A stretch of 64,000 nucleotides of DNA from Spirulina sp. (GTDB lineage: Bacteria; Cyanobacteriota; Cyanobacteriia; Phormidesmidales; Phormidesmidaceae), in contig JBIPSI010000001.1 in assembly GCA_044070495.1 (NCBI GenBank), positions 160,001 to 224,000 of the forward strand, written 5' to 3'. Below, one piece after another: positions 5,037-21,916 of this stretch. How positions within the stretch are numbered: position 1 is the first letter of the stretch; each line of letters starts with the position of its first letter. The position numbers were made by a program, and so were the translations under genes. Below the pieces are notes generated by a model. That model was not told the DNA's origin and did no database searches. It saw nothing but the letters and a program-made list of their open reading frames with translations.

Positions 5037-5678
5037 TTGGGCGTCGATCTTCGTAGTTACGTATACATAGATAATCTGCAACCCCAGCACGCCGCCTACA
5101 TGGGCACCGTATCCCTGGGCTTTTTGCCGCTGCCGGGGGATGCCTCCCTGTGGATTGAAATTTCCCCCGGCATTGAGATCAACCGCATCCTCGACATTGG
5201 CCTCAAGGCGGCGGTGGTACGCCCCGGTACGCTGATTGTGGAACGCCTCTACGGGCTGCTAGAACTCCACGCCAACAAGCAGGGGGAAGTCCACGCCGCT
5301 GGCCAAGCCATGCTCGATGCCCTAGGGGTGAGCTATCGGGAACGCCTCAAGCCTCGGATTATCTCCAGCCAGGTGATCCGCAACCTTGACCCCCACCATG
5401 TGCAACTGATCAACCGCAACCGCCGAGGCAATATGATCGTCGCAGGCCAAACCCTCTACGTGTTTGAGGTGGAGCCTGCCGCCTATGCCTCCCTGGCCGC
5501 CAACGAAGCCGAAAAAGCCGCCCTGATCAACATTCTGCAAATTAGTTCCGTGGGTAGCTTTGGTCGCCTCTACCTAGGGGGCGAAGAGCGTGATATTTTA
5601 GCGGCCCAGCAAGCTGTCCTCGCCGCCATGGAATCGGTGGCGGGGCGCGACCATTCCGACTACCAGCGCCAAGAATAG
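5037..5678 (+). CDS. ccmP: Carboxysome shell protein CcmP (tandem BMC domain)
   Basis: 213 aa; [20 protein letters not shown]...[12 protein letters not shown]...VERLYGLLE and [17 protein letters not shown]...[10 protein letters not shown] match CcmP. TTG start. Confidence 0.9.
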
Positions 5679-5691
5679 TGGCCTACCTCCT

Positions 5692-5973
5692 ATGACCGAT
5701 CCCCGATTGCCCCAGTCCAACGATGGCGACTCCAGCAACGGATCGACGCCGCCGATGCCCAGATCCCACGCGGATCGACTGCCCCAGCCCCCCCCAGCAC
5801 CCCAGGCCCCGATTACCGAAACCCTCAGCCCCGGCATGAAGCGAGACATTCGGCGGGCCTTTTTGATTTTGCTGGGCACAGGACTCGTGATCGGCCTCCT
5901 TACCGCCACGGGGATCGTCCTGGTGATGAATCATTTCAACCTGATCGGCGTACCGGAACAAACCGCCCCCTAA
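5692..5973 (+). CDS. Small membrane hypothetical protein
   Basis: Pro-rich N-terminus and one TM helix; begins 13 nt after ccmP. Confidence 0.65.
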   Translation: MTDPRLPQSNDGDSSNGSTPPMPRSHADRLPQPPPAPQAPITETLSPGMKRDIRRAFLILLGTGLVIGLLTATGIVLVMNHFNLIGVPEQTAP

Positions 5974-6938
5974 CTCGCCCGTCGCTGACGAATTTGGGCC
6001 ATAAAAAACTCCTCCAGGCTTGGTCGGGCCTGTTGCAGGGAAATAATCTCAGCCCCCATTTGGGAAAGCTGCTGCACAAAGGCGTAGGGATTGCCCGTCA
6101 GGTGGCCATGCCAGAGATCCCCCTGCACCGTCAGATGATCCAGCCAGGGATCGATCTGACTAAACTGCCCCCCTCGCCCCCGCACCTGATACTGATCGGC
6201 GGTACCCAGCAGATCGCTAAGGTTCCCCACACAGACCAAATCCCCCTGATCCAAAATGGCGATGCGGTCGCAAATTACCTCCACATCGGAGAGGATGTGA
6301 CTGTTAAAAAAGATGGTTTTGCCCTCCCGTTTCAGGGCCAAGATAATTTCCCGCACCTGAAACCGCCCGGTGGGATCAAGGCCCGACATCGGCTCATCTA
6401 AAAAGACCAAGTCGGGGTCATTCACAAGGGCCTGGGCAATGCCAATGCGTTGCAGCATCCCCTTAGAATATTGCCGTAGCTGCTTCTTTTTGGCGGCCTC
6501 CTGGGGTAGCCCGACCAAGTCTAAAAGTTCCACAATGCGGCGCTGGCGGGCGGCGGCGGAAAGGCCAAACAGTCCGGCGGTGTATTGCAAAAATTCCCAA
6601 CCCGTCAAAAAATCGTAGAAGTAGGGATTTTCAGGCAGATAGCCCAACCGCTGTTTCACGGTGTAATCCCCCAGAGGTTGCCCCAACAACTGGGCCTGCC
6701 CTGCGGTGGGTCGAATAATGCCCAGCAGGGTTTTCAGCAGCGTCGTTTTTCCGGCACCGTTGGGGCCAAGCAAGCCAAAGGTTTCCCCCTGGTAAATGGT
6801 GAGGGAACAATGCTGGAGCGAGGTAATCCGCTGATTTAGCCAAAACCCCGTGCGATAGGTTTTGCCTAGATCCTGGGTTTCAATCACCACGGGCTTCGGC
6901 TGAGAATTGGCCGCAGGAGGGGACACAACGTTGCTCAT
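5970..6938 (-). CDS. ABC transporter ATP-binding protein (ABC-2 type)
   Basis: Walker A GPNGAGKT, signature YSKGMLQR, Walker B LVFLDEP. Confidence 0.92.
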   Translation of the reverse strand: MSNVVSPPAANSQPKPVVIETQDLGKTYRTGFWLNQRITSLQHCSLTIYQGETFGLLGPNGAGKTTLLKTLLGIIRPTAGQAQLLGQPLGDYTVKQRLGYLPENPYFYDFLTGWEFLQYTAGLFGLSAAARQRRIVELLDLVGLPQEAAKKKQLRQYSKGMLQRIGIAQALVNDPDLVFLDEPMSGLDPTGRFQVREIILALKREGKTIFFNSHILSDVEVICDRIAILDQGDLVCVGNLSDLLGTADQYQVRGRGGQFSQIDPWLDHLTVQGDLWHGHLTGNPYAFVQQLSQMGAEIISLQQARPSLEEFFMAQIRQRRAS

Positions 6939-7025
6939 AAAATCGCCAGCCCAACAAGGACATCAACACCTGTCCTAGAATACACAGACAACCCCCTAGG
7001 GGTACCCCTGTGTGAGAAAAACGCC

Positions 7026-7259
7026 ATGGATCGCTCAAAAATCGTCGCCATTGTCACCGGAGTCCTGTCCTTGCTGCTGGCCATAGGCTATCTGCTGTTG
7101 GTGCAGCTTCTAGACTTTCGGGGAGAGATGATCCCCGCGCCCATTTCCCTCCTTCCCTCACCCTCGGTAGCGGTAGGGAACCTAGCTCAGTCCATCGCTG
7201 TCGATCTGTTTAGGGGCGCTCCTGCCCTGACCCCATCGTGGCTTGAGGACGCAGCCTAA
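7026..7259 (+). CDS. Conserved small cyanobacterial membrane protein
   Basis: MDRSKIVAIVTG...YLLLVQLLDFRGEMIPAP resembles a widespread small cyanobacterial protein. Confidence 0.7.
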   Translation: MDRSKIVAIVTGVLSLLLAIGYLLLVQLLDFRGEMIPAPISLLPSPSVAVGNLAQSIAVDLFRGAPALTPSWLEDAA

Positions 7260-11655: not shown

Positions 11656-13320
11656 ATGACCATTCCCACAGATCGGACGGCGTTATACCAACTGCTTCTG
11701 GCTCTGCCGACCCCTCAGTTTGAAGCGCTGCTGTTTGACCTCAACCCGCCTAAGGGTAATATTTCGCCTCCCACCGCTCCCCGAGGGCAACGGGTGCCAG
11801 AATTGTTGGACTGGTTGGAAAGCCCCATTGGCCCCGGACTAGAGGCATTGAGAACCGCCGTAGAGCAGGTGGTCGTCGGTCACGAAAAAGGTAGCCGTGA
11901 CAAGCTCCCGGATCCACTGATCCCACAGAATCAAGGGACACCCGATTCGTCACCACGGGATGACAACGCACAAGATAACGATCCCCTCCCTCTCCCCAAG
12001 CGTCTGTTTCCCCTGCGCTTCAGTAAGACACTGATGATTTTGGCCCTGGTCAGTGGCTTTGGGGCGGCCTCCTTGGTGTCGGTCGTGCGCTTTTGGGGAG
12101 CCTTTGAACGGCTGGAACTGATGGCCTACGACCATGTGCTAACGGTAAGACCAGCGGAGCCCGTCAGTGATCGCATTATCGTCCTAGAAGCGAACCGAGC
12201 GGTGGTAGACGCTGAGCAAGCCAAAGAACCCAAAAATCTGGCAGAGACCCTATCCGATGCCACCCTCACCGCTGCCATTCAAAAACTCCAGGACTATGGC
12301 ACCAGCGTGATTGGCTTGGACTGGTATCTGCCCGCTGATCTCAGCCAGTGGTCGGCATCGGTTTTACCAGTCTTTCAGGCCTCTGATCCCGCAGGTCAAC
12401 GCTCGGCTATCTATGGCCTATGCCTCCAGCCCTACCAGGGGCGCACGGGGGAAGAAAATGCGGTACCCGCTCCCCATCCCCAGGCCATCCCCCCGGAGCG
12501 TGTGGGGTTTAGCAACTTTGCGACCGATGGCGATACCGTTCTGCGCCGACACCTGGTCAGCAATGGCCTAGGCGACACGGTTACCGCACCGCCCTGCCCC
12601 TCTACCCAAGCCTTTAGCACCCTCATTGCCCTACGGTACTTGGACGTCAACCATCCCGACCTTGGCCCCTTCCTTCCGCCAGACCTGTCAACCCCTTCAA
12701 CCTTGCGCCGCCAATCCACCCTCGGCCCCACAACCCTGGAGGGGCCGTACACCTATATTTATGGCGGCTACCAAAACCTAGACCCTGCGGCCTTGGAAAT
12801 CATGATCAACTACCGAGAACCGCCAGGGAATAATCTACGCGCCGCCTTTACCCATAAATCCCTCTACGACTTGCTAGAGAATCGGCTAGACCCCGCTGCC
12901 TTTCAAGGAAAAGTGGTGCTGCTAGGGCTAACGGACGATACCCGCATTAGCGACCGATTTTTAACCCCCTACGGTGACGAACTCGGCGTCACCCTGCAAG
13001 CCCACATGGTTGACCACCTGATCAGCTTGGCCCTGGGGGAACGACGGCAAATTTGGGTATGGACGAGGGGCGGCGAGTTTGCCTGGATTTTGCTGTGGGG
13101 TGTGATGGGCGGATGGCTGGGCGTTGTCGGGCGCAAACGACCTTGGTGGCTTACCGGATCGCTCGTGGCTGGGGTGTTGGGCATTTATCTAGCCAGTCGT
13201 TTGACGATGGGAGTCCTAGCCCTTTGGTTGCCCATGGTGCCGCCCATGGTGGCCTTCGTGCTGGCCCAAGGCACTGTGGTTTATACTGAGGCCACATTGC
13301 AAAGGAATCGCTCCGAATAG
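11656..13320 (+). CDS. CHASE2-domain membrane protein with a small N-terminal helical module and no C-terminal output domain
   Basis: TM helix then LELMAYD..L..RP, IGLDWY, VGFSNFATDGDTVLRR, GKVVLLG, GVTLQAHMV, followed by three TM helices and the stop. Confidence 0.85.
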   Translation: MTIPTDRTALYQLLLALPTPQFEALLFDLNPPKGNISPPTAPRGQRVPELLDWLESPIGPGLEALRTAVEQVVVGHEKGSRDKLPDPLIPQNQGTPDSSPRDDNAQDNDPLPLPKRLFPLRFSKTLMILALVSGFGAASLVSVVRFWGAFERLELMAYDHVLTVRPAEPVSDRIIVLEANRAVVDAEQAKEPKNLAETLSDATLTAAIQKLQDYGTSVIGLDWYLPADLSQWSASVLPVFQASDPAGQRSAIYGLCLQPYQGRTGEENAVPAPHPQAIPPERVGFSNFATDGDTVLRRHLVSNGLGDTVTAPPCPSTQAFSTLIALRYLDVNHPDLGPFLPPDLSTPSTLRRQSTLGPTTLEGPYTYIYGGYQNLDPAALEIMINYREPPGNNLRAAFTHKSLYDLLENRLDPAAFQGKVVLLGLTDDTRISDRFLTPYGDELGVTLQAHMVDHLISLALGERRQIWVWTRGGEFAWILLWGVMGGWLGVVGRKRPWWLTGSLVAGVLGIYLASRLTMGVLALWLPMVPPMVAFVLAQGTVVYTEATLQRNRSE

Positions 13321-13391: not shown

Positions 13392-14216
13392 ATGGCAAAC
13401 AAGTGGCTAGGACTCCTCATTGTGGCTGTCGGGTGGAGCTTTGTGGATTCCCCTAGCTGGGCCAATTCCCCAGCCTCAGATCCCGTCGCTGATACCATCC
13501 TCTATGCCCAGGGCAACCAGTCCGAGGGTTTTTGGGTACGAACCTGGCAACGGTTGCGGGGTCGCCCTGCCCCCAGCCAAAGAAGCGGTTCCACAGGGCG
13601 CGGTGGGGCCAACCACGACCGCTGCCTCTACACCACCGAAGAACTGCTGGCCCTAGTGCCCACCGCTGCCGATACAGGGCTGCCCTACCTAGAACCCATC
13701 CTCACGGGCTATCCCACCTGGTGGTTTTACGTGCCCTACGCTGGCAACGGTCGCCTCCAGGCCGAATTTGTGTTGATCGATGCCGACGAAACCATTCTTT
13801 ACGAACAGGCCATCACCGTGCCCCCAACCCCCGGAGTGATGCCTGTCTCCTGGCCCGAAACGGAGCCGCCCCTCTCCCCAGGGGAAGCCTACCGCTGGGT
13901 ATTTTCTATCCGCTGCAACCCCGCCAACCGCTCCGGCGATGCCACCGTCAACGGCTGGATCCAACGCGCCACCACCGAAGAGTCTGCCGCCCTCGCCACT
14001 CAGCTTGCCACCGCCCCCAACCCCTACCAAGTTCTCGCGGACTCCTTTTACTGGTTCGATCTTCTAGCTGCTCTCAACACCCTCAAAACCAGCGATCCCC
14101 AGCAGTTCTCGCCCCTGTGGGATGGGTTACTGTGCCAGGTCTATGCCCAGTCCGACCGCCTCGTTATCCCCACCGAAACCTGCCCCGATCTCTCCAGTCT
14201 GCCAGAACAAAACTAA
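13392..14216 (+). CDS. DUF928 family secreted protein
   Basis: Signal peptide; GGA..RC, LLALVP, PTWWFYVPY, EFVL.D, YRWVFSIRC, VNGWIQR, YWFDLL are typical DUF928 motifs. Confidence 0.85.
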   Translation: MANKWLGLLIVAVGWSFVDSPSWANSPASDPVADTILYAQGNQSEGFWVRTWQRLRGRPAPSQRSGSTGRGGANHDRCLYTTEELLALVPTAADTGLPYLEPILTGYPTWWFYVPYAGNGRLQAEFVLIDADETILYEQAITVPPTPGVMPVSWPETEPPLSPGEAYRWVFSIRCNPANRSGDATVNGWIQRATTEESAALATQLATAPNPYQVLADSFYWFDLLAALNTLKTSDPQQFSPLWDGLLCQVYAQSDRLVIPTETCPDLSSLPEQN

Positions 14217-14260: not shown

Positions 14261-17200
14261 ATGCCCCAGCCCCCAGAAAATCTCCAACACCGCCAACTCC
14301 AGCGATGGCTCAAGCCCTTTGGTATGGTCTCGCTCTTGGCCAGCAGCTACCTACTCACCCAGGCGGCCCAAGCCTTCGAGCCATTCCCACGGAGGGAGAT
14401 GCAATCCCACCTGCAAACGGGATTGGTCCAACTCCGCCAAACCCGCGTTCAACCCCTTGCATTGATCTCAGAAAGCCACCCCAATCCAGTCCTTTCTGAG
14501 GGCCTGGAAGGGCGAAATCTAGCCAAAGATATGGCTTTGTTAAGCCAGAACCCGCCAGATTCCCCAGCGGTTGAAGACCCTGAAGCTACTGAGCCGCCTT
14601 CCGAGCCTCAAGTATTGGTCGCTGAGGTAGTTGTAGAATCCCTAAGCGGTGAACTTCCTGCTGAGCTTAGAGATCTAATCTATGAGACTGTGCAGACCAG
14701 GGCAGGAAACACCACATCCCGCAGCCAACTTCAGCTAGACATTAACAATATTTTTACAACGGGCTTTTTTTCTGATGTCGATGCCCGCCCAGAAGATACA
14801 GATCTGGGTGTACGAGTTACGTTCATCGTACGGCCTAACCCCGTTCTCACCGATGTTCAGATCGTGGGAAATCAGGTGCTACCTTTAGCCATCGTTAATC
14901 AAATTTTTGCGAGTCAAAAGAATCGAATAATTAACCTACTTGATTTTCAAGATGGCATTGAATCTATTAATCAGTGGTATCAAGATAATGGTTATATCTT
15001 AGCTAAGATCATTGAGAATCCAAGGGTCTCCGACCAAGGAGTAGTTACTGTAGAAGTCACCGAAGGCGTGATTGAAGCCATTGAAGTACGGTTTGTGGAT
15101 GAGAACGGAAATACTACTAATGAGCAAGGCCAACCTATTCAAGGCAAAACTCAAGAGTATGTGATTTTGCGGGAGTTTCAAAGTCGTCCAGGTCATGTGT
15201 TTCAAGAATCTCGCATTGAGAGCGACTTTCAGAGGGTAAGAAATCTAGGGTTCTTAGGTAGAGTCACTCCTGGATTAGAGCCTAGTGAAGTTGACCCTCG
15301 CCAGATCAGGGTTATTATTAATATTAATGAGATTAAAAATAATTCGTTTTCAGCAGGGGCGGGAAGAAATTTTTCTGGCAATATTTTTCTTTCCGGCGGT
15401 TACAGCAACAAAAATCTTCTAGGACGAGGGCAAACACTAGCTTTCGAGACAGAGGTTGGCATTTCCGAAACAAAGCTTACTGCATCATTGAACAGTCCTG
15501 GCACTCTGGATAAATCACTTGCTACGCCTTCGGAATTAAATGGCGCAGTTAATGCTGTTAACATAGCCGTTAGTCGGATGAGAGAGCAACCTCTAGATAA
15601 GGAAAGACGCTTAGAGGCCATCGATAAAATGAAAAAGCTACACCGTCTTTCTCAAGCTACGAATAATAAATCTTTAGAGATATTAGTTCTGAACAATTTA
15701 ACCAACTTGTATTTGCGTGATAATGTTATTGACTTTCTTAAGACCTCTGACGAGGCGCTAGAGCTAATTAACAGGATTGAGAGTCCGGCTTTGGAAACGT
15801 ACTTTTTACTTCGTCAAGTCAAAGCCTATAGAGCCTTAAGTAAGCCTCAACGAGCATTGGATAACTATACTCAAGCACTGGAAAAGATCAACAAACTTCA
15901 AAAGAATGTTAATCTATCCAACTGGCTCGGCGAAGATATGTTTGACGCCTTGTCGGACGAATGGCATCTTAGAAGTCAAGAAGATTCGTTCTCTGACAAG
16001 GACATTGCTCAAGCGCTCAATCTAGTTAAATTGGGTATTTTATTGGACACAACTTTTACTTATAGTGTTCTCGGGGATTACCAAGCTGGGCTCTATATGG
16101 CCAGCTCGAATGAGTTTTCAAATACAACAAATTCATTGTTAGATTACATTAACAATTTTTTGAATAGCAATCTAATAAAATTGACATCAGTTGTCGGATC
16201 AAATGAGCCTAATAACGAAAAAGATGGCGATTTGGTTGAAGCATTCTTTTTCAATTTTTGGTTAGTCGAAGCCAAGAAAACTTATCAGGTTTTTCTCAGT
16301 AATATACCAGAAATTTACAAGAGAAAAACCCTCTCTATTCTCTTCTCTGATCTTGATGAGCTTGAATCAAGAGCTATTCAGGAGGCTCGAATTAAAGACA
16401 TGAGTATCTCTCCCAGGAAACAAATAAACCTGCTTTTGTACCGCTCAATGGAATTCCTGTCTAGTCCTGATTATCTTAGTAGCGACGGATTCTTGAGTGG
16501 ATTTGGTGCAGATTTTATGGGGCCTGTTTTGCTTGAGATCCAACCGCTTATCCCAGAGGCATTTGATCTTGAAACTCAGATGTGGAATGCAGAAAAACTA
16601 GAGGCTATCATCAATATTTCAAAAGACTCTCTAATTCAGCATTTTTCTGAATCGGGAGACCAGCAAACAATTACGCTAGTCAATCAGTTCAGCGGTCTGA
16701 TTGATTTTTTTGTACAAAGCTTTGTATCCGGGTCTCGTTTTGAGAAGGATAGCCCTGAGTATTATCAGTACAGGGTAGAACTTGCTCAGACTGCTTTAAG
16801 GGACTGGCAGGGCCAAAATAGTATCAGTCGGGAGTTTGATTGGACTAAAGGATTTATTCTGAAATCTCAGGGTGATGCTCACTATCGGCTTGGCGACTAT
16901 GAAACAGCGGCTTCTGTTTATGAAAGTGCTATTCCATTCTTGATCAAGGCCGAAGAGTTTTATAAAGGAGGATTTAGAAACTCAAATCCTAAAATCCAGA
17001 GCTTCATAGGAGCAGTCAAACATAATGAAAGCTTGTCATGGGCGAATCAACTCATTTTTCAAATACTTTTTTCTCAACGTCTCTCGACTTCCTTAAGCGC
17101 GGCTGATGCCCATCTAGAACTGAAAAAATCAAGTACGGCAAAAGCCCGATATCTTGACGCCTTGGAGCTTAGTGAGAGAGTCATAGCAGAAGAATTTGTC

Positions 17201-18904
17201 TACAAACAGACTGAACTGTCAGAAATTTACTACGGCCTAGCACGGGCTGAGGCAATGTTAGGCAATGCTAAAGAGGCAGAAGAGGCAATAGAACAATCAA
17301 TTGCTATTAGTGAATCATCCTTTCCCAATGAGTCGGTCTCTGGCGGCACTGGGGTTCTAGATTTGGGATTTACCTACGGCTATGGTCTGCCCTATCGAGG
17401 ATCAATTTCGGCCAGCTTTAAACTTGAGACAGAAAATCCCTGGTTAGCGGCAAGTACGAATCAAGATTTTTTAGTAGAGCGACGTTGTGCGACGGTAACA
17501 CAGTATTTTGAATGTCGGCAAAAATATTTTGACTTTTACATTAGCTGGCTATTGCAACAGCACCAGGCCAACCCCACGATGGGGTTTGATGTAAGGGCCT
17601 TTGAGGCCAGTGAGCAGGCCAAATCCTTCAGTTTTCGGCGACCCGATAGCGAGGTTTCGGCTCAGGATCGGTTTGCTCCGACTCGTACTTTGGCGGAGAT
17701 TCAGGCGGCAATTGGGGACAACGAAACGCTGGTGCTGGAATATTTTCTGGGTCAGGAAGTCAGCTATTTGTGGATGCTAGGCCAGGATGGGGCGCTGCAA
17801 GTTTACACCCTACCCCCTCGCGCCGAGATTGAAGCCCAGGCCCAGGTGTTCTACGACCTGTTGACCTCGCCGACCGGGCGGGTGCGGCCCCAAACGACGG
17901 CCCAGGCGGGGGCGGCCCTCAGTAACATGATTCTTGGCCCCGTGGCCGACCAACTGGGCACCCAGCGCTTGGTGATCGTGGCCGATGGATTGTTGCAGTA
18001 TCTTCCCTTCGCCGCCCTGCCCAACCCCAACCCCGACAACCTGCCGACGGTCTCAGCCCAGCAAGGGGAATATGGCCCTGCGCTGAATCCCCTGCTGCTG
18101 GATCACGAGGTGGTGCATCTGCCCTCGGCCTCTACCTTGGTGGCGCTGCGGCGCAATGCCCCCTCGCGGCCCCAGCCTACCCAGGAACTCGCCTTTTTCG
18201 CCAATCCTGTTTTCAATCACAAAGACGAACGGGTGCGGCAGGTAAAGCTGTTCCCTTGGTCACGGCCCTTTAGTCAGGCGGAACTAGACAACATCGAAGC
18301 CCTCTACAGCGCCATTCCCGCCACCGAGGAAGAGTTAGACCGCATCCTAGCCGCTAACCTACTGCCAGAAGGCAAGGTGAAAACCTTCTTTGGCTACGAG
18401 GCCAACCTTGAGGCGGCGCTAGATTCCCAGTTGGGGCAGTATCGCATCGTGCACTTTGCCTCCCACGGCATTTTCAATAGCAATGCCCCAGAGCGTTCCG
18501 GCGTGGTGCTGTCGGGCCTCAGCGAGGCTGGGGTGGTGCAGGCGGGTCTATTGTCGCCCACCTACGCCTTTAACGACATGAACCTTTCTGCTACGGAACT
18601 GGTCGTCCTCAGCGGTTGCCGCACGGGGCTAAGCCAGGGCCACATTGGCCGCGAGGGCATGACCGGGCTCACCAATGGCCTGTTTGATGCCGGGGCCGAG
18701 CGCGTGGTGGCCAGCCTGTGGAGCGTGCGAGATGACGCTACCCGTGAGCTGATGAATCGGTTCTATGGGTTAATGCTAGACCCAGAAAACCCGCTACCGC
18801 CCGCCCAGGCCCTCACCGAGGCCCAGCGCTCGATGTGGAACGAACCCCGCTGGCAAACCCCCTACAACTGGGCCGCGTTTACGCTCCAGGGCGTTTGGGA
18901 GTAG
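14261..18904 (+). CDS. Fusion protein: signal peptide, BamA/Omp85 POTRA1-3 plus ~4 beta-strands, TPR-like helical region, CHAT protease
   Basis: aa ~115-415 match the cyanobacterial Omp85 N-terminus (VLVAEVVV, TSRSQLQLDINNIFTTGFF, WYQDNGY, GKTQEYVILREF, NLLGRGQTL). The C-terminal CHAT domain has IVADGLLQYLPFAAL, VHFASHG, LVVLSGCRTG, VVASLWSV and PYNWAAFTLQG. Confidence 0.85.
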   Translation: MPQPPENLQHRQLQRWLKPFGMVSLLASSYLLTQAAQAFEPFPRREMQSHLQTGLVQLRQTRVQPLALISESHPNPVLSEGLEGRNLAKDMALLSQNPPDSPAVEDPEATEPPSEPQVLVAEVVVESLSGELPAELRDLIYETVQTRAGNTTSRSQLQLDINNIFTTGFFSDVDARPEDTDLGVRVTFIVRPNPVLTDVQIVGNQVLPLAIVNQIFASQKNRIINLLDFQDGIESINQWYQDNGYILAKIIENPRVSDQGVVTVEVTEGVIEAIEVRFVDENGNTTNEQGQPIQGKTQEYVILREFQSRPGHVFQESRIESDFQRVRNLGFLGRVTPGLEPSEVDPRQIRVIININEIKNNSFSAGAGRNFSGNIFLSGGYSNKNLLGRGQTLAFETEVGISETKLTASLNSPGTLDKSLATPSELNGAVNAVNIAVSRMREQPLDKERRLEAIDKMKKLHRLSQATNNKSLEILVLNNLTNLYLRDNVIDFLKTSDEALELINRIESPALETYFLLRQVKAYRALSKPQRALDNYTQALEKINKLQKNVNLSNWLGEDMFDALSDEWHLRSQEDSFSDKDIAQALNLVKLGILLDTTFTYSVLGDYQAGLYMASSNEFSNTTNSLLDYINNFLNSNLIKLTSVVGSNEPNNEKDGDLVEAFFFNFWLVEAKKTYQVFLSNIPEIYKRKTLSILFSDLDELESRAIQEARIKDMSISPRKQINLLLYRSMEFLSSPDYLSSDGFLSGFGADFMGPVLLEIQPLIPEAFDLETQMWNAEKLEAIINISKDSLIQHFSESGDQQTITLVNQFSGLIDFFVQSFVSGSRFEKDSPEYYQYRVELAQTALRDWQGQNSISREFDWTKGFILKSQGDAHYRLGDYETAASVYESAIPFLIKAEEFYKGGFRNSNPKIQSFIGAVKHNESLSWANQLIFQILFSQRLSTSLSAADAHLELKKSSTAKARYLDALELSERVIAEEFVYKQTELSEIYYGLARAEAMLGNAKEAEEAIEQSIAISESSFPNESVSGGTGVLDLGFTYGYGLPYRGSISASFKLETENPWLAASTNQDFLVERRCATVTQYFECRQKYFDFYISWLLQQHQANPTMGFDVRAFEASEQAKSFSFRRPDSEVSAQDRFAPTRTLAEIQAAIGDNETLVLEYFLGQEVSYLWMLGQDGALQVYTLPPRAEIEAQAQVFYDLLTSPTGRVRPQTTAQAGAALSNMILGPVADQLGTQRLVIVADGLLQYLPFAALPNPNPDNLPTVSAQQGEYGPALNPLLLDHEVVHLPSASTLVALRRNAPSRPQPTQELAFFANPVFNHKDERVRQVKLFPWSRPFSQAELDNIEALYSAIPATEEELDRILAANLLPEGKVKTFFGYEANLEAALDSQLGQYRIVHFASHGIFNSNAPERSGVVLSGLSEAGVVQAGLLSPTYAFNDMNLSATELVVLSGCRTGLSQGHIGREGMTGLTNGLFDAGAERVVASLWSVRDDATRELMNRFYGLMLDPENPLPPAQALTEAQRSMWNEPRWQTPYNWAAFTLQGVWE

Positions 18905-20248: not shown

Positions 20249-21916
20249 TCATTCCCACTCGGCGGCGTATTGCAGCAATAGGGGCGGCAGCTTGAGGTCG
20301 GCGGGGGTACGATGGCGGGCCTCAAACACGCCTACAATGTCCTTGGGGCCGGGGTTACCCTTGGCCTGTCCGGTCACACCGCTAGCAATCACCACGGCGC
20401 AGCAGCCCCCGCTTTTCTGCTGCCACTGATCCCACCGTTCCAACTGGCGCTGATCGGGGCCGGGGTCACTTTCGTACTCGGCAAACAGGTGCAGTTCGCT
20501 ATCTCCGGTTTGCAGGAGTCCTAGTTCAAAATGGACGCCGTTAAAGGGATCGCTGCCAGGGTTAAAACACACAGCCTGAACGCCCTGGGCTGATTGCAGG
20601 TCTTTGATCAGAGCCTTGGCCTTGGGGCGGGAGGTCTGAATGATCACCACGGGCAGGGTGGCTTGCTTGGGCAGAGGGCCATCGGGATGATCGGCGTAGG
20701 CCACCATAGGATCCAGTTTGGCAAACTCCAGCCAGGATCGTTTGATTTGGGTAAGCAAAATAAGCGCCCCCTCCGGCACATAGTCGTCGCGCAGGACGGG
20801 GAAGGTGAGAACGTCATCGCTGTCGTCGTCGTCACCAATCGCTTGCTCGGTTTGTTCCAGCAGCTCTTCAGTAACTTCCGGCAGGGTTTTGACCGTTACC
20901 TTGAGGGCCGGAGCGCTGCTTTTTTCTGGATTGGGAATGCGATAGCTGCCCTTTAGATCGGGGTAGGGGGGCTTTTCTAGGCGCGACCGATGCTTGGACA
21001 GGAACCGCTGGAGCGCCTCCATGGCCACGAGAAAAATGGCTCCCTCTTCGTCGGCCAGTTGGCTTCGCAGTCCTTCCAGGGGGTGAATACTGCCAAAGAT
21101 TGGATCCACCGCATCGGGGGCGGCGTTGGCCCAGCCTAAGGCCGCAAAGGGGCCGCTGGGAACCGGATCCTCCAACAGTTCAAAGTTTACAAACAGGCAG
21201 TCCTGCTCTAAAAAGGCCTCCTGCATTTGTTTGGGCGATTGTTGTCCCATCAGCACCCGTTCCCGAAACTGTTTCAGGGAGTCTAGGGTGCGGTACATCA
21301 ACAGACCATACTCCACCCCGCCCATGCCCAGCACCGAAACATAGAGGGTCTCAATATCCCAAGCGTTTAGCTCGATAGCGATCACCTGCTGCTCGTTGAG
21401 GCTGTGCCAGGGGCCAAGTTCCCAGACTTCCATGGCCTTGTCGATCATGGCGTCGCCGTAGCGTTCGGGCAATTCCGCTTCCTCCAGGCCGCTAGCCTGC
21501 TGGAGGGCGTTGAACAACTCGTCAATCAGCGGCAGTTCCGGGGCGTAATCTACTTCAATATCCAGCCCTTGAATCGCTCCACGCAGGTAAAACTGAATCT
21601 CCCGATCACTCACCACAATCTTTTTAGGGCGGGCCGGAGGCAGGGAACTTTGGGGCGATTCGATAGCCTGGATCAGGGTGCGAACAATCGGCTCGTAGCC
21701 GCTGCTAGAGGGCACCATGGTAATGCCGCGTACCGTGCCGTGGCCGCTGTCTACCCAAAGAATACAGTCGCTATGTTCACTACTCCCATTGCGATTCCAG
21801 GTGTTCGCATCTTCCTCCACCAGTCCACTCATCGGTCGCCGAGCCCCCTCCCATACGCTAGCAATCCGGGGCAGCTGCTTGAGGCGATCAATGGTAATAC
21901 GGTTCAATCGAGTCAT
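20249..21916 (-). CDS. Conserved cyanobacterial hypothetical protein
   Basis: 555-aa ORF with native codon usage (RLKQLP...WEG.RR, CILWVD, ARPKKIVV.DREIQF.LRG); function unknown. Confidence 0.8.
   Translation of the reverse strand: MTRLNRITIDRLKQLPRIASVWEGARRPMSGLVEEDANTWNRNGSSEHSDCILWVDSGHGTVRGITMVPSSSGYEPIVRTLIQAIESPQSSLPPARPKKIVVSDREIQFYLRGAIQGLDIEVDYAPELPLIDELFNALQQASGLEEAELPERYGDAMIDKAMEVWELGPWHSLNEQQVIAIELNAWDIETLYVSVLGMGGVEYGLLMYRTLDSLKQFRERVLMGQQSPKQMQEAFLEQDCLFVNFELLEDPVPSGPFAALGWANAAPDAVDPIFGSIHPLEGLRSQLADEEGAIFLVAMEALQRFLSKHRSRLEKPPYPDLKGSYRIPNPEKSSAPALKVTVKTLPEVTEELLEQTEQAIGDDDDSDDVLTFPVLRDDYVPEGALILLTQIKRSWLEFAKLDPMVAYADHPDGPLPKQATLPVVIIQTSRPKAKALIKDLQSAQGVQAVCFNPGSDPFNGVHFELGLLQTGDSELHLFAEYESDPGPDQRQLERWDQWQQKSGGCCAVVIASGVTGQAKGNPGPKDIVGVFEARHRTPADLKLPPLLLQYAAEWE

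Follow-up and report, generated by a model that had tools for sequence, protein, structure and literature searches.

Why should a fragment of the outer-membrane protein BamA stand at the head of a caspase-fold protease? The question is raised by a gene in a 64,000-nucleotide stretch of Spirulina sp. DNA (assembly GCA_044070495.1, contig JBIPSI010000001.1, positions 160,001 to 224,000 of the forward strand), which is referred to here as the window and is numbered from its first letter. A first-pass annotation, made from the letters of the window, had described BamA POTRA domains 1 to 3 and a truncated barrel joined in frame to a TPR-CHAT protease, and had proposed that the BamA piece serves as a bait or decoy sensor. 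Our data indicate that this POTRA-TPR-CHAT architecture is real, is not unique and is undescribed in the searchable literature. We regard the protein as a variant of the presumably exported TPR-CHAT proteases within the CHASE2-DUF928 module.

One reading frame joins a BamA fragment to a TPR-CHAT protease

The fusion is encoded by a single open reading frame (ORF) at positions 14261-18904 of the plus strand, which specifies 1547 amino acids (aa) plus stop and is not interrupted by an internal stop. The segment that had been singled out, positions 14603-15502, corresponds to aa 115-414, and the frame does continue from there through helical repeats into CHAT. The parts of the gene are listed below.

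14261..18904, plus strand: fusion gene POTRA-relic-TPR-CHAT, 1547 aa plus stop (ORF, Pfam, NCBIfam)
14261..14602, plus strand: leader, aa 1-114; basic residues and a hydrophobic segment, with AQA-F near aa 38 and a linker rich in Pro/Ser behind it
14603..15334, plus strand: POTRA1-3 of the cyanobacterial BamA type, aa 115-358 (Pfam, NCBIfam, alignment to the genome's own BamA, AlphaFold, Foldseek)
15335..15499, plus strand: relic of barrel strands 1-4, aa 359-413 (alignment to the own BamA up to its residue 508; four predicted strands)
15500..17680, plus strand: helical/TPR scaffold, aa 414-1140, about 730 aa (Pfam TPR, AlphaFold, Foldseek)
17681..18901, plus strand: pre-CHAT and CHAT caspase-fold domain, aa 1141-1547 (Pfam CHAT)
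18464-18466, plus strand: His1402 in CHAT, putative catalytic dyad
18617-18619, plus strand: Cys1453 in CHAT, putative catalytic dyad

Pfam detected POTRA in three stretches (1.7e-19), scattered TPR motifs, and CHAT (PF12770) at aa 1216-1544 (1e-63). The NCBIfam model for Toc75 (TIGR00992) aligns to aa 119-400, and that for BamA (TIGR03303) aligns with model positions 334-458 of 741 to aa 296-421. These models and the structural matches described below agree on three POTRAs of the cyanobacterial Omp85 type. The BamA of the same genome aligns to aa 131-413 at 55% identity and free of gaps, up to BamA residue 508, which lies inside the barrel. This alignment and four predicted strands bear out the assignment of the segment behind the POTRAs to barrel strands 1-4, and the conserved turn N-L/F-x-G-R/Q-x-Q is present in this relic. 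The other strands are absent, as had been stated: Pfam gave no match to the Omp85 barrel family PF01103 in the fusion protein, and a hidden Markov model (HMM) of 835 positions, built from 26 cyanobacterial BamAs, matched the fusion at positions 226-534 and gave no second match in it with filters off. Because the barrel is absent, the fusion cannot be an insertase.

Structure prediction, which the annotation had suggested as a check, supports this division. In an AlphaFold model of aa 100-620, POTRA1-3 had a predicted local distance difference test score (pLDDT) of about 90, and four relic strands were predicted at aa 361-369, 375-383, 392-400 and 404-411. The pLDDT of these strands was 46-65 in this model compared with 67-82 in a second model that spans aa 348-1547 and reached a pLDDT of 83.5 and a predicted template modelling score (pTM) of 0.82. 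For the N-terminal model, the top Foldseek matches were the POTRA1-3 structures of cyanobacterial Omp85, 3MC8 and 2X8X (probability 1.00; template modelling score 0.78-0.91 by target; 47-49% identity). The best matches for the model of aa 348-1547 were Csx29 and separase (E about 1e-11); DdvA (8ROT) was also found (E 8e-10). A complex prediction with four relic copies (aa 352-418), run without controls, gave a score of 0.01. A conserved hairpin at aa 1033-1055 (G-F-T-Y-G-Y-G) was considered as a relic of the last BamA strands and was rejected; a second match to the BamA HMM was seen in one of 16 class A proteins (defined below), with an independent E-value of 1.3 and filters off.

The basic-hydrophobic-AxA pattern of the leader suggests a putative Sec signal peptide. 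The pattern is also kept in the homologues P0002-P0004 and in that of the genome G038, and within the genome the DUF928 proteins and two further TPR-CHAT proteins begin in this way as well. Towards the other end of the chain, all 34 aligned rows agree in H1402, G1403 and C1453. We assign His1402 and Cys1453 as the putative catalytic dyad from the motifs of CHAT proteins; with this pair intact, the CHAT domain is apparently active. A search for sequencing runs listed no RNA run, and no run shared more than 0.11 of the sequence words.

The architecture recurs in a family of cyanobacterial proteins

A word-based search found five further single-chain proteins with POTRA and CHAT, P0002-P0006. P0002-P0004 are 51-69% identical to the fusion over the full length, P0005 and P0006 are more distant, and the P0002 cluster comprises four full-length members on separate contigs. 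The middle region (aa 430-1200), used in an exhaustive search, produced 2025 matches at E <= 0.001. According to Pfam, their 25 best representatives comprise 17 proteins with POTRA and CHAT, three POTRA-bearing fragments and five proteins without POTRA, so that the fusion is not unique.

When 219 proteins were scanned with the BamA HMM, a BamA-type POTRA region was found in 36 proteins that are not BamA. In class A (17 proteins including the window fusion), BamA homology extends to HMM position 526-544 (15 of 16 aligned), so the relic is included. In class B (19 of the 36), it stops at the POTRA3 border, at HMM position 486-496, and the relic is missing. All 36 proteins retain POTRA1-3, even where the remainder of the chain has fallen to about 30% identity. 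Family members are labelled 'CHAT domain-containing protein' in the database and come from Leptolyngbyaceae, Spirulina and Coleofasciculus assemblies. One POTRA-TPR-CHAT protein, P0083, carries the label of a metagenome-assembled genome of Pseudohongiellaceae, a gammaproteobacterial group; its POTRA part is 72% identical to a cyanobacterial BamA (L110), and mis-binning is more likely than transfer.

Few genomes of the set carry the gene. Among 36 other genomes of the same genus it was found in G005 only, and among 24 genomes of other families of the class in G038 only; a species-representative collection added two copies, L035 and L103, in G061 and G062. The G005 copy (L032:1-900 and L031:6200-6517) is a pseudogene, with an in-frame deletion of POTRA1, a frameshift in POTRA2 and a stop in the POTRA3 loop. 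The region from aa ~290 to ~505 is taken up by contig ends and unrelated sequence, possibly from an inserted repeat; the assembly is interrupted ahead of the helical part. The L035 copy contains frameshifts and lies on a contig labelled cov_2.14, that is, about 2x coverage.

The annotation knew of no characterised protein with this architecture, and our literature search agrees: no paper describing it was found, none contained both 'POTRA' and 'CHAT domain', and none of the papers listed by a wider search on caspase homologues mentions POTRA.

The POTRA part is repeatedly renewed from the resident bamA

As the annotation had expected, an intact bamA, followed by lpxC, lies on another contig of the genome (5.31 Mb, 74 contigs). 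The BamAs nearest to it belong to Nodosilinea and allies. In a careful tree of POTRA plus relic with 37 rows, the G038 fusion was sister to the G038 BamA (100/100), and P0001-P0004 were nested in the Nodosilinea-type BamA clade (100/100). An approximately unbiased (AU) test with five fusions rejected a single clade (p 2e-5). Compared with P0004, the G038 fusion is 60% identical in the leader, about 56% in the relic, 60% in the helical part and 84% in CHAT. In its POTRA tract (aa about 148-346), by contrast, identity to the host bamA reaches 89.6% at the protein level; the DNA alignment of 638 nt has no gaps and shows 88.4% identity, rising to 98% in a core, and the border of the tract lies just before the relic. 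The G038 POTRA tract is a gene-conversion tract from the host bamA.

For a larger sampling, 77 named BamAs were added and a careful tree with 63 rows was computed. The 17 class A POTRA modules were scattered among BamA lineages, with 10 changes on this tree, at least 8 of which are forced by well-supported branches (the tree groups were designated after the data had been inspected once). Class A POTRA monophyly appeared in none of 200 bootstrap trees, and an AU test rejected these modules as one clade (delta lnL, the difference in log-likelihood, 416; p 0.0005). For POTRA1-3, the best BamA match was at least as good as the best match to another fusion in 11 of 16 fusions; P0075, for example, reached 73% to BamA versus 54%. 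The relic has a mean identity of 27-42% to the BamA strands, which indicates fast evolution. The POTRA tree that had been called for in the annotation therefore places the module as BamA-derived and interleaved with BamA lineages: the POTRAs nest among BamAs of the host lineage, and in G038 the source is the host gene itself.

The junction and the relic are common to the fusions, and for this reason we interpret the pattern as a single ancient fusion whose POTRA1-3 were later replaced, time and again, by sequence from the resident bamA. That each lineage captured POTRA and relic independently is unlikely: BamA homology ends at the same narrow interval of the HMM in 15 of 16 class A proteins, and the G038 relic follows P0004, not the host BamA. 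A single Nodosilinea-type origin with one conversion, as the first small tree suggested, was superseded when the wider BamA sampling gave many placements.

Selection and composition

The annotation had raised the possibility that the POTRA part evolves neutrally. Between the genome of the window (G000) and G005, the ratio of non-synonymous to synonymous substitution rates (dN/dS) was 0.17 for the POTRA piece (73 codons), 0.18 for the helical part, 0.11 for CHAT and 0.35 for the leader; dS of the POTRA piece and of the helical part was 1.3-1.5, which is near saturation. The POTRA part of bamA, taken for comparison, gave 0.04. The POTRA part of the fusion is thus constrained, although less than in BamA.

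The composition of the gene is a mosaic. The GC content at third codon positions (GC3) is 0.61 in the leader, 0.37 in POTRA, 0.34 in the relic, 0.39 in the helical part and 0.74 in CHAT, compared with 0.64-0.77 in neighbouring genes and the own bamA and 0.72 in the POTRA part of that bamA. The G038 and G062 copies also show the dip. The ends are more conserved than the middle: relative to P0002, CHAT is 92% and the helical part 59% identical. The pattern would be consistent with alleles or hosts swapping the middle of the gene, anchored by its conserved ends.

The fusion gene belongs to a CHASE2-DUF928 cassette

Two genes precede the fusion gene on the same strand, in the order CHASE2 - DUF928 - fusion, with gaps of 71 and 44 nt.

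11656..13320, plus strand: CHASE2 membrane receptor gene, 554 aa (Pfam CHASE2 8.8e-42, aa 140-486; hydrophobic C-terminus)
13392..14216, plus strand: DUF928 gene, 274 aa, signal-peptide-like N-terminus (Pfam DUF928 3.1e-35)

CHASE2 and DUF928 genes adjoin the fusion gene in all five genomes with readable flanks (G000, G005, G038, G061, G062); the three genes are co-directional in four of these and convergent in G062. The N-terminus of the window CHASE2 protein (~125 aa; 11656-12030) had no Pfam or NCBIfam match in searches with its first 95-140 aa. ESM Atlas gave a weak lead to the effector-associated domains (EADs) EAD7 and EAD1, with 0.77-0.79, below the bar of 0.9. The CHASE2 proteins of G038 and G061 begin with a caspase-like domain in place of the cytoplasmic-looking, unmatched segment of the window protein.

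The G038 cassette (L030, G038:C80:146001-164000) lies between a TrwC relaxase/helicase gene and Prim-Pol, helicase and SNF2-like/DUF6908 genes, surroundings that suggest an integrated conjugative or mobilisable element. In the window, the neighbours of the cassette are housekeeping genes. A search for insertion by synteny showed no empty site; in relatives, the flanks were on different contigs or about 400 kb apart. PADLOC gave no defence family match for the three cassette proteins.

Elsewhere in the genome, all four DUF928 genes lie beside CHASE2 genes and near CHAT or two-partner secretion (TPS) genes. Each of the three TpsB (ShlB-type Omp85) genes has a CHAT gene within 8 kb; one TpsB gene and a TPR-CHAT gene are separated by 45 nt, and one TpsA protein has a C-terminal CHAT domain. 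The genome has four Omp85-superfamily matches, located on contigs C58, C18, C16 and C6 and all of them outside the window contig, C1. Because TpsB genes sit near CHAT genes, the fusion looks like the gene-fusion version of a recurring partnership; its POTRAs are of the BamA type, not of the TpsB type. No paper describing the CHASE2-DUF928-CHAT module as a whole was found.

Several further observations concern these gene families. DUF928 proteins (window 13392-14216; L014, L030, L103) have in common, behind the putative signal peptide, a stretch rich in Gly, Arg and Ser with G-G-A-x-x-D-x-C or a variant of it at its end; this stretch may be a site of cleavage or of ligand binding. Contig C35 of the same genome (51 kb; L006-L009, L011) carries at least nine CHAT genes in a row, of 23 CHAT matches in the genome, and one of these C35 genes shares its ORF with a partial CHASE2 match. 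Contig C58 (1602-2561, minus strand, and 5377-7197, plus strand) has the true bamA-lpxC locus and, at a distance of about 3 kb, a CHASE2 gene with a frame of 842 aa, a proximity that may be coincidental. A second locus on contig C16 (L014:1342-8678) has the order DUF1822 - caspase-like-CHASE2 - DUF928 - TPS-domain protein. In the window itself, positions 20249-21916 of the minus strand encode a 555-aa protein with DUF6930 and DUF7309, downstream of argJ.

Relation to known systems

With BamA and the cyanobacterial Omp85 proteins (Anabaena, 3MC8; Thermosynechococcus, 2X8X) the fusion shares three POTRAs and the first four barrel strands including the conserved turn. Where BamA has strands 5-16 and its C-terminal motifs, the fusion has 1130 aa of scaffold and protease. 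The part behind the relic resembles Csx29, the TPR-CHAT protein of Craspase, and separase in combining a helical scaffold with a CHAT protease. In both of these the scaffold gates the CHAT domain, and activation follows from RNA-guided Cas7-11 or from loss of securin. Unlike the fusion, Csx29 and separase are cytoplasmic or nuclear and carry no envelope domains. The fusion locus has the core of the CHASE2-DUF928-CHAT module; it differs in the BamA POTRAs on the CHAT protein and in having no TpsA/TpsB pair at the locus.

A functional analogy is offered by DegS-RseA of E. coli, in which a periplasmic protease is switched on by unassembled outer-membrane proteins and starts a transmembrane signal. 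DegS is a serine protease of the HtrA family with a PDZ domain, not POTRA, and there is no homology to the fusion.

The structural match to DdvA of Myxococcus xanthus (8ROT) adds the one studied periplasmic TPR-CHAT protein, and the predicted location of the fusion would be the same. The authors of the DdvA study propose sensing of a periplasmic protein signal and signal-induced cleavage of the site-1 type (PMC11506125). DdvA differs from the fusion in being itself a membrane-anchored anti-sigma factor with an incomplete active site and no POTRA. The fusion, in contrast, would be exported as a protein of its own, with CHASE2 as the component in the membrane.

Proposed mechanism and alternatives

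Our preferred explanation, which we hold tentatively and which may well prove wrong, is a periplasmic TPR-CHAT protease with a BamA-mimicking module that meets clients or partners of BamA and signals through DUF928 and CHASE2. The protein would be exported by Sec, with a copy of the periplasmic half of BamA (POTRA1-3 and the four-strand remnant) at its N-terminus, and would act as the third component of a patchily distributed cyanobacterial cassette of CHASE2 receptor, exported DUF928 protein and protease. Because the fusion protein looks exported, its POTRA module would share a compartment with the POTRAs of BamA. Its ligands there might be unfolded outer-membrane or TpsA-type proteins, contacted through extended beta-strand segments, or periplasmic partners of BamA, and such binding would bring the protease to the traffic of outer-membrane proteins or report on that traffic. 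The helical scaffold may keep CHAT inactive until the POTRAs are bound, as the scaffolds of Csx29, separase and DdvA suggest. Once active, the protease would cleave a protein of the periplasm, for which DUF928 and the CHASE2 ectodomain are the simplest candidates, and CHASE2 would relay the signal through the inner membrane. That recombination keeps the POTRAs close to the host BamA fits a module that must resemble BamA.

Several points weigh against this explanation. The evolutionary part of it has one conversion tract, that of G038, that can be mapped against a known host bamA with clear borders. The POTRA part of the G062 fusion is 51% identical to its host BamA and its position is unstable: it grouped with other fusions in a small tree that included the relic and came near the host BamA lineage only in larger trees. 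The fusions evolve several-fold faster than BamA, and fast fusions beside slow BamAs can give misleading trees. About half of the family, the class B proteins, have no barrel relic, so strand 1 can have no role that holds for all members. In G005, which has the one other copy found in the genus, the POTRA part is broken, so that genome can do without the gene. Finally, the periplasmic location is predicted from a sequence pattern, and DUF928 or CHASE2 as target is a guess from gene adjacency.

The decoy sensor of the first-pass annotation survives in part. As an integrated decoy or guard, the BamA-like module would bait an attacker of BamA, such as a phage protein, a bacteriocin or a peptide, and thereby trip CHAT, and CHASE2 would pass a death or defence signal inward. 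The module is copied from BamA and re-matched to the host bamA, as expected of a mimic; the protein looks exported and is encoded with CHASE2. The caspase-like domain of the CHASE2 partner in G038 and G061, the EAD lead in the window, the patchy occurrence and the TrwC relaxase gene beside the G038 cassette point in the same direction. DdvA shows that a periplasmic TPR-CHAT protein can belong to phage defence (PMC11506125). Other parts of the proposal did not hold. Strand 1 cannot serve as a general bait, since 19 of 36 fusion-type proteins lack strands 1-4. Known BamA-binding agents act through the extracellular surface loops of BamA, and these loops are absent here, where the periplasmic part and two short loops remain. 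Defence families in PADLOC were not matched, the window neighbours are housekeeping genes, and the EAD lead stays below the bar and has no Pfam support. We therefore consider a decoy unlikely. A more elaborate form of it is a living BamA mimic, kept current by gene conversion from bamA, that samples stalled outer-membrane proteins or an attacker of the BAM complex and releases the protease, after which CHASE2 would address a cytoplasmic caspase-like or death-type adaptor as an integrated-decoy guard of outer-membrane biogenesis; this, too, has a low probability in our view.

The BamA piece could instead be a localisation tether only. The POTRAs and the relic would then park the protease at the outer membrane or at BAM/Omp85, either through POTRA contacts or by forming a small barrel, oligomeric or hybrid, and sensing would be left to TPR, DUF928 and CHASE2. 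The topology would suit this role, as four strands begin and end on the periplasmic side and both flanking domains would face the periplasm. The relic is also present in 15 of 16 class A members, its strands retain the alternation of polar and non-polar residues, and they are modelled with higher confidence together with the rest of the protein. Against these points stand the class B proteins without relic and the fast evolution of the relic where it exists, and we regard a pure tether as rather doubtful.

As an evolutionary leftover, the BamA piece would be a recombination passenger that has no function of its own and is at most a leader or spacer for an exported TPR-CHAT protease. Frequent recombination with bamA, the compositional mosaic from leader over POTRA to CHAT and the loss of POTRA1 in the G005 copy might be taken for it. 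In G005, however, the whole gene is broken and not the POTRA part alone. The retention of POTRA1-3 in 36 proteins that are otherwise strongly diverged, the low dN/dS and the confidently predicted POTRA folds also make a mere passenger improbable.

An assembly chimera or frameshift artefact that joins a bamA fragment to a CHAT gene, which the annotation had named as a concern and which the sharp GC change inside the ORF might suggest, can practically be dismissed, because the same architecture and junction recur in independent assemblies (P0002 with its four full-length members, G038, G062, L035), the GC dip recurs in the G038 and G062 copies, and the genome has a separate bamA of its own.

Implications

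To our knowledge, POTRA domains have been known only as parts of Omp85-type membrane machines. Here they form the front end of a soluble caspase-fold protease, across a family of cyanobacterial proteins. The re-copying of the host bamA is a rare and clear case of a domain that is kept in step with its parent gene, and its repetition argues that the resemblance to BamA is selected. The family offers a handle on the targets of exported bacterial CHAT proteases and on what CHASE2 and DUF928 detect, as well as on the proteolytic monitoring of outer-membrane-protein assembly beyond the enterobacterial models.

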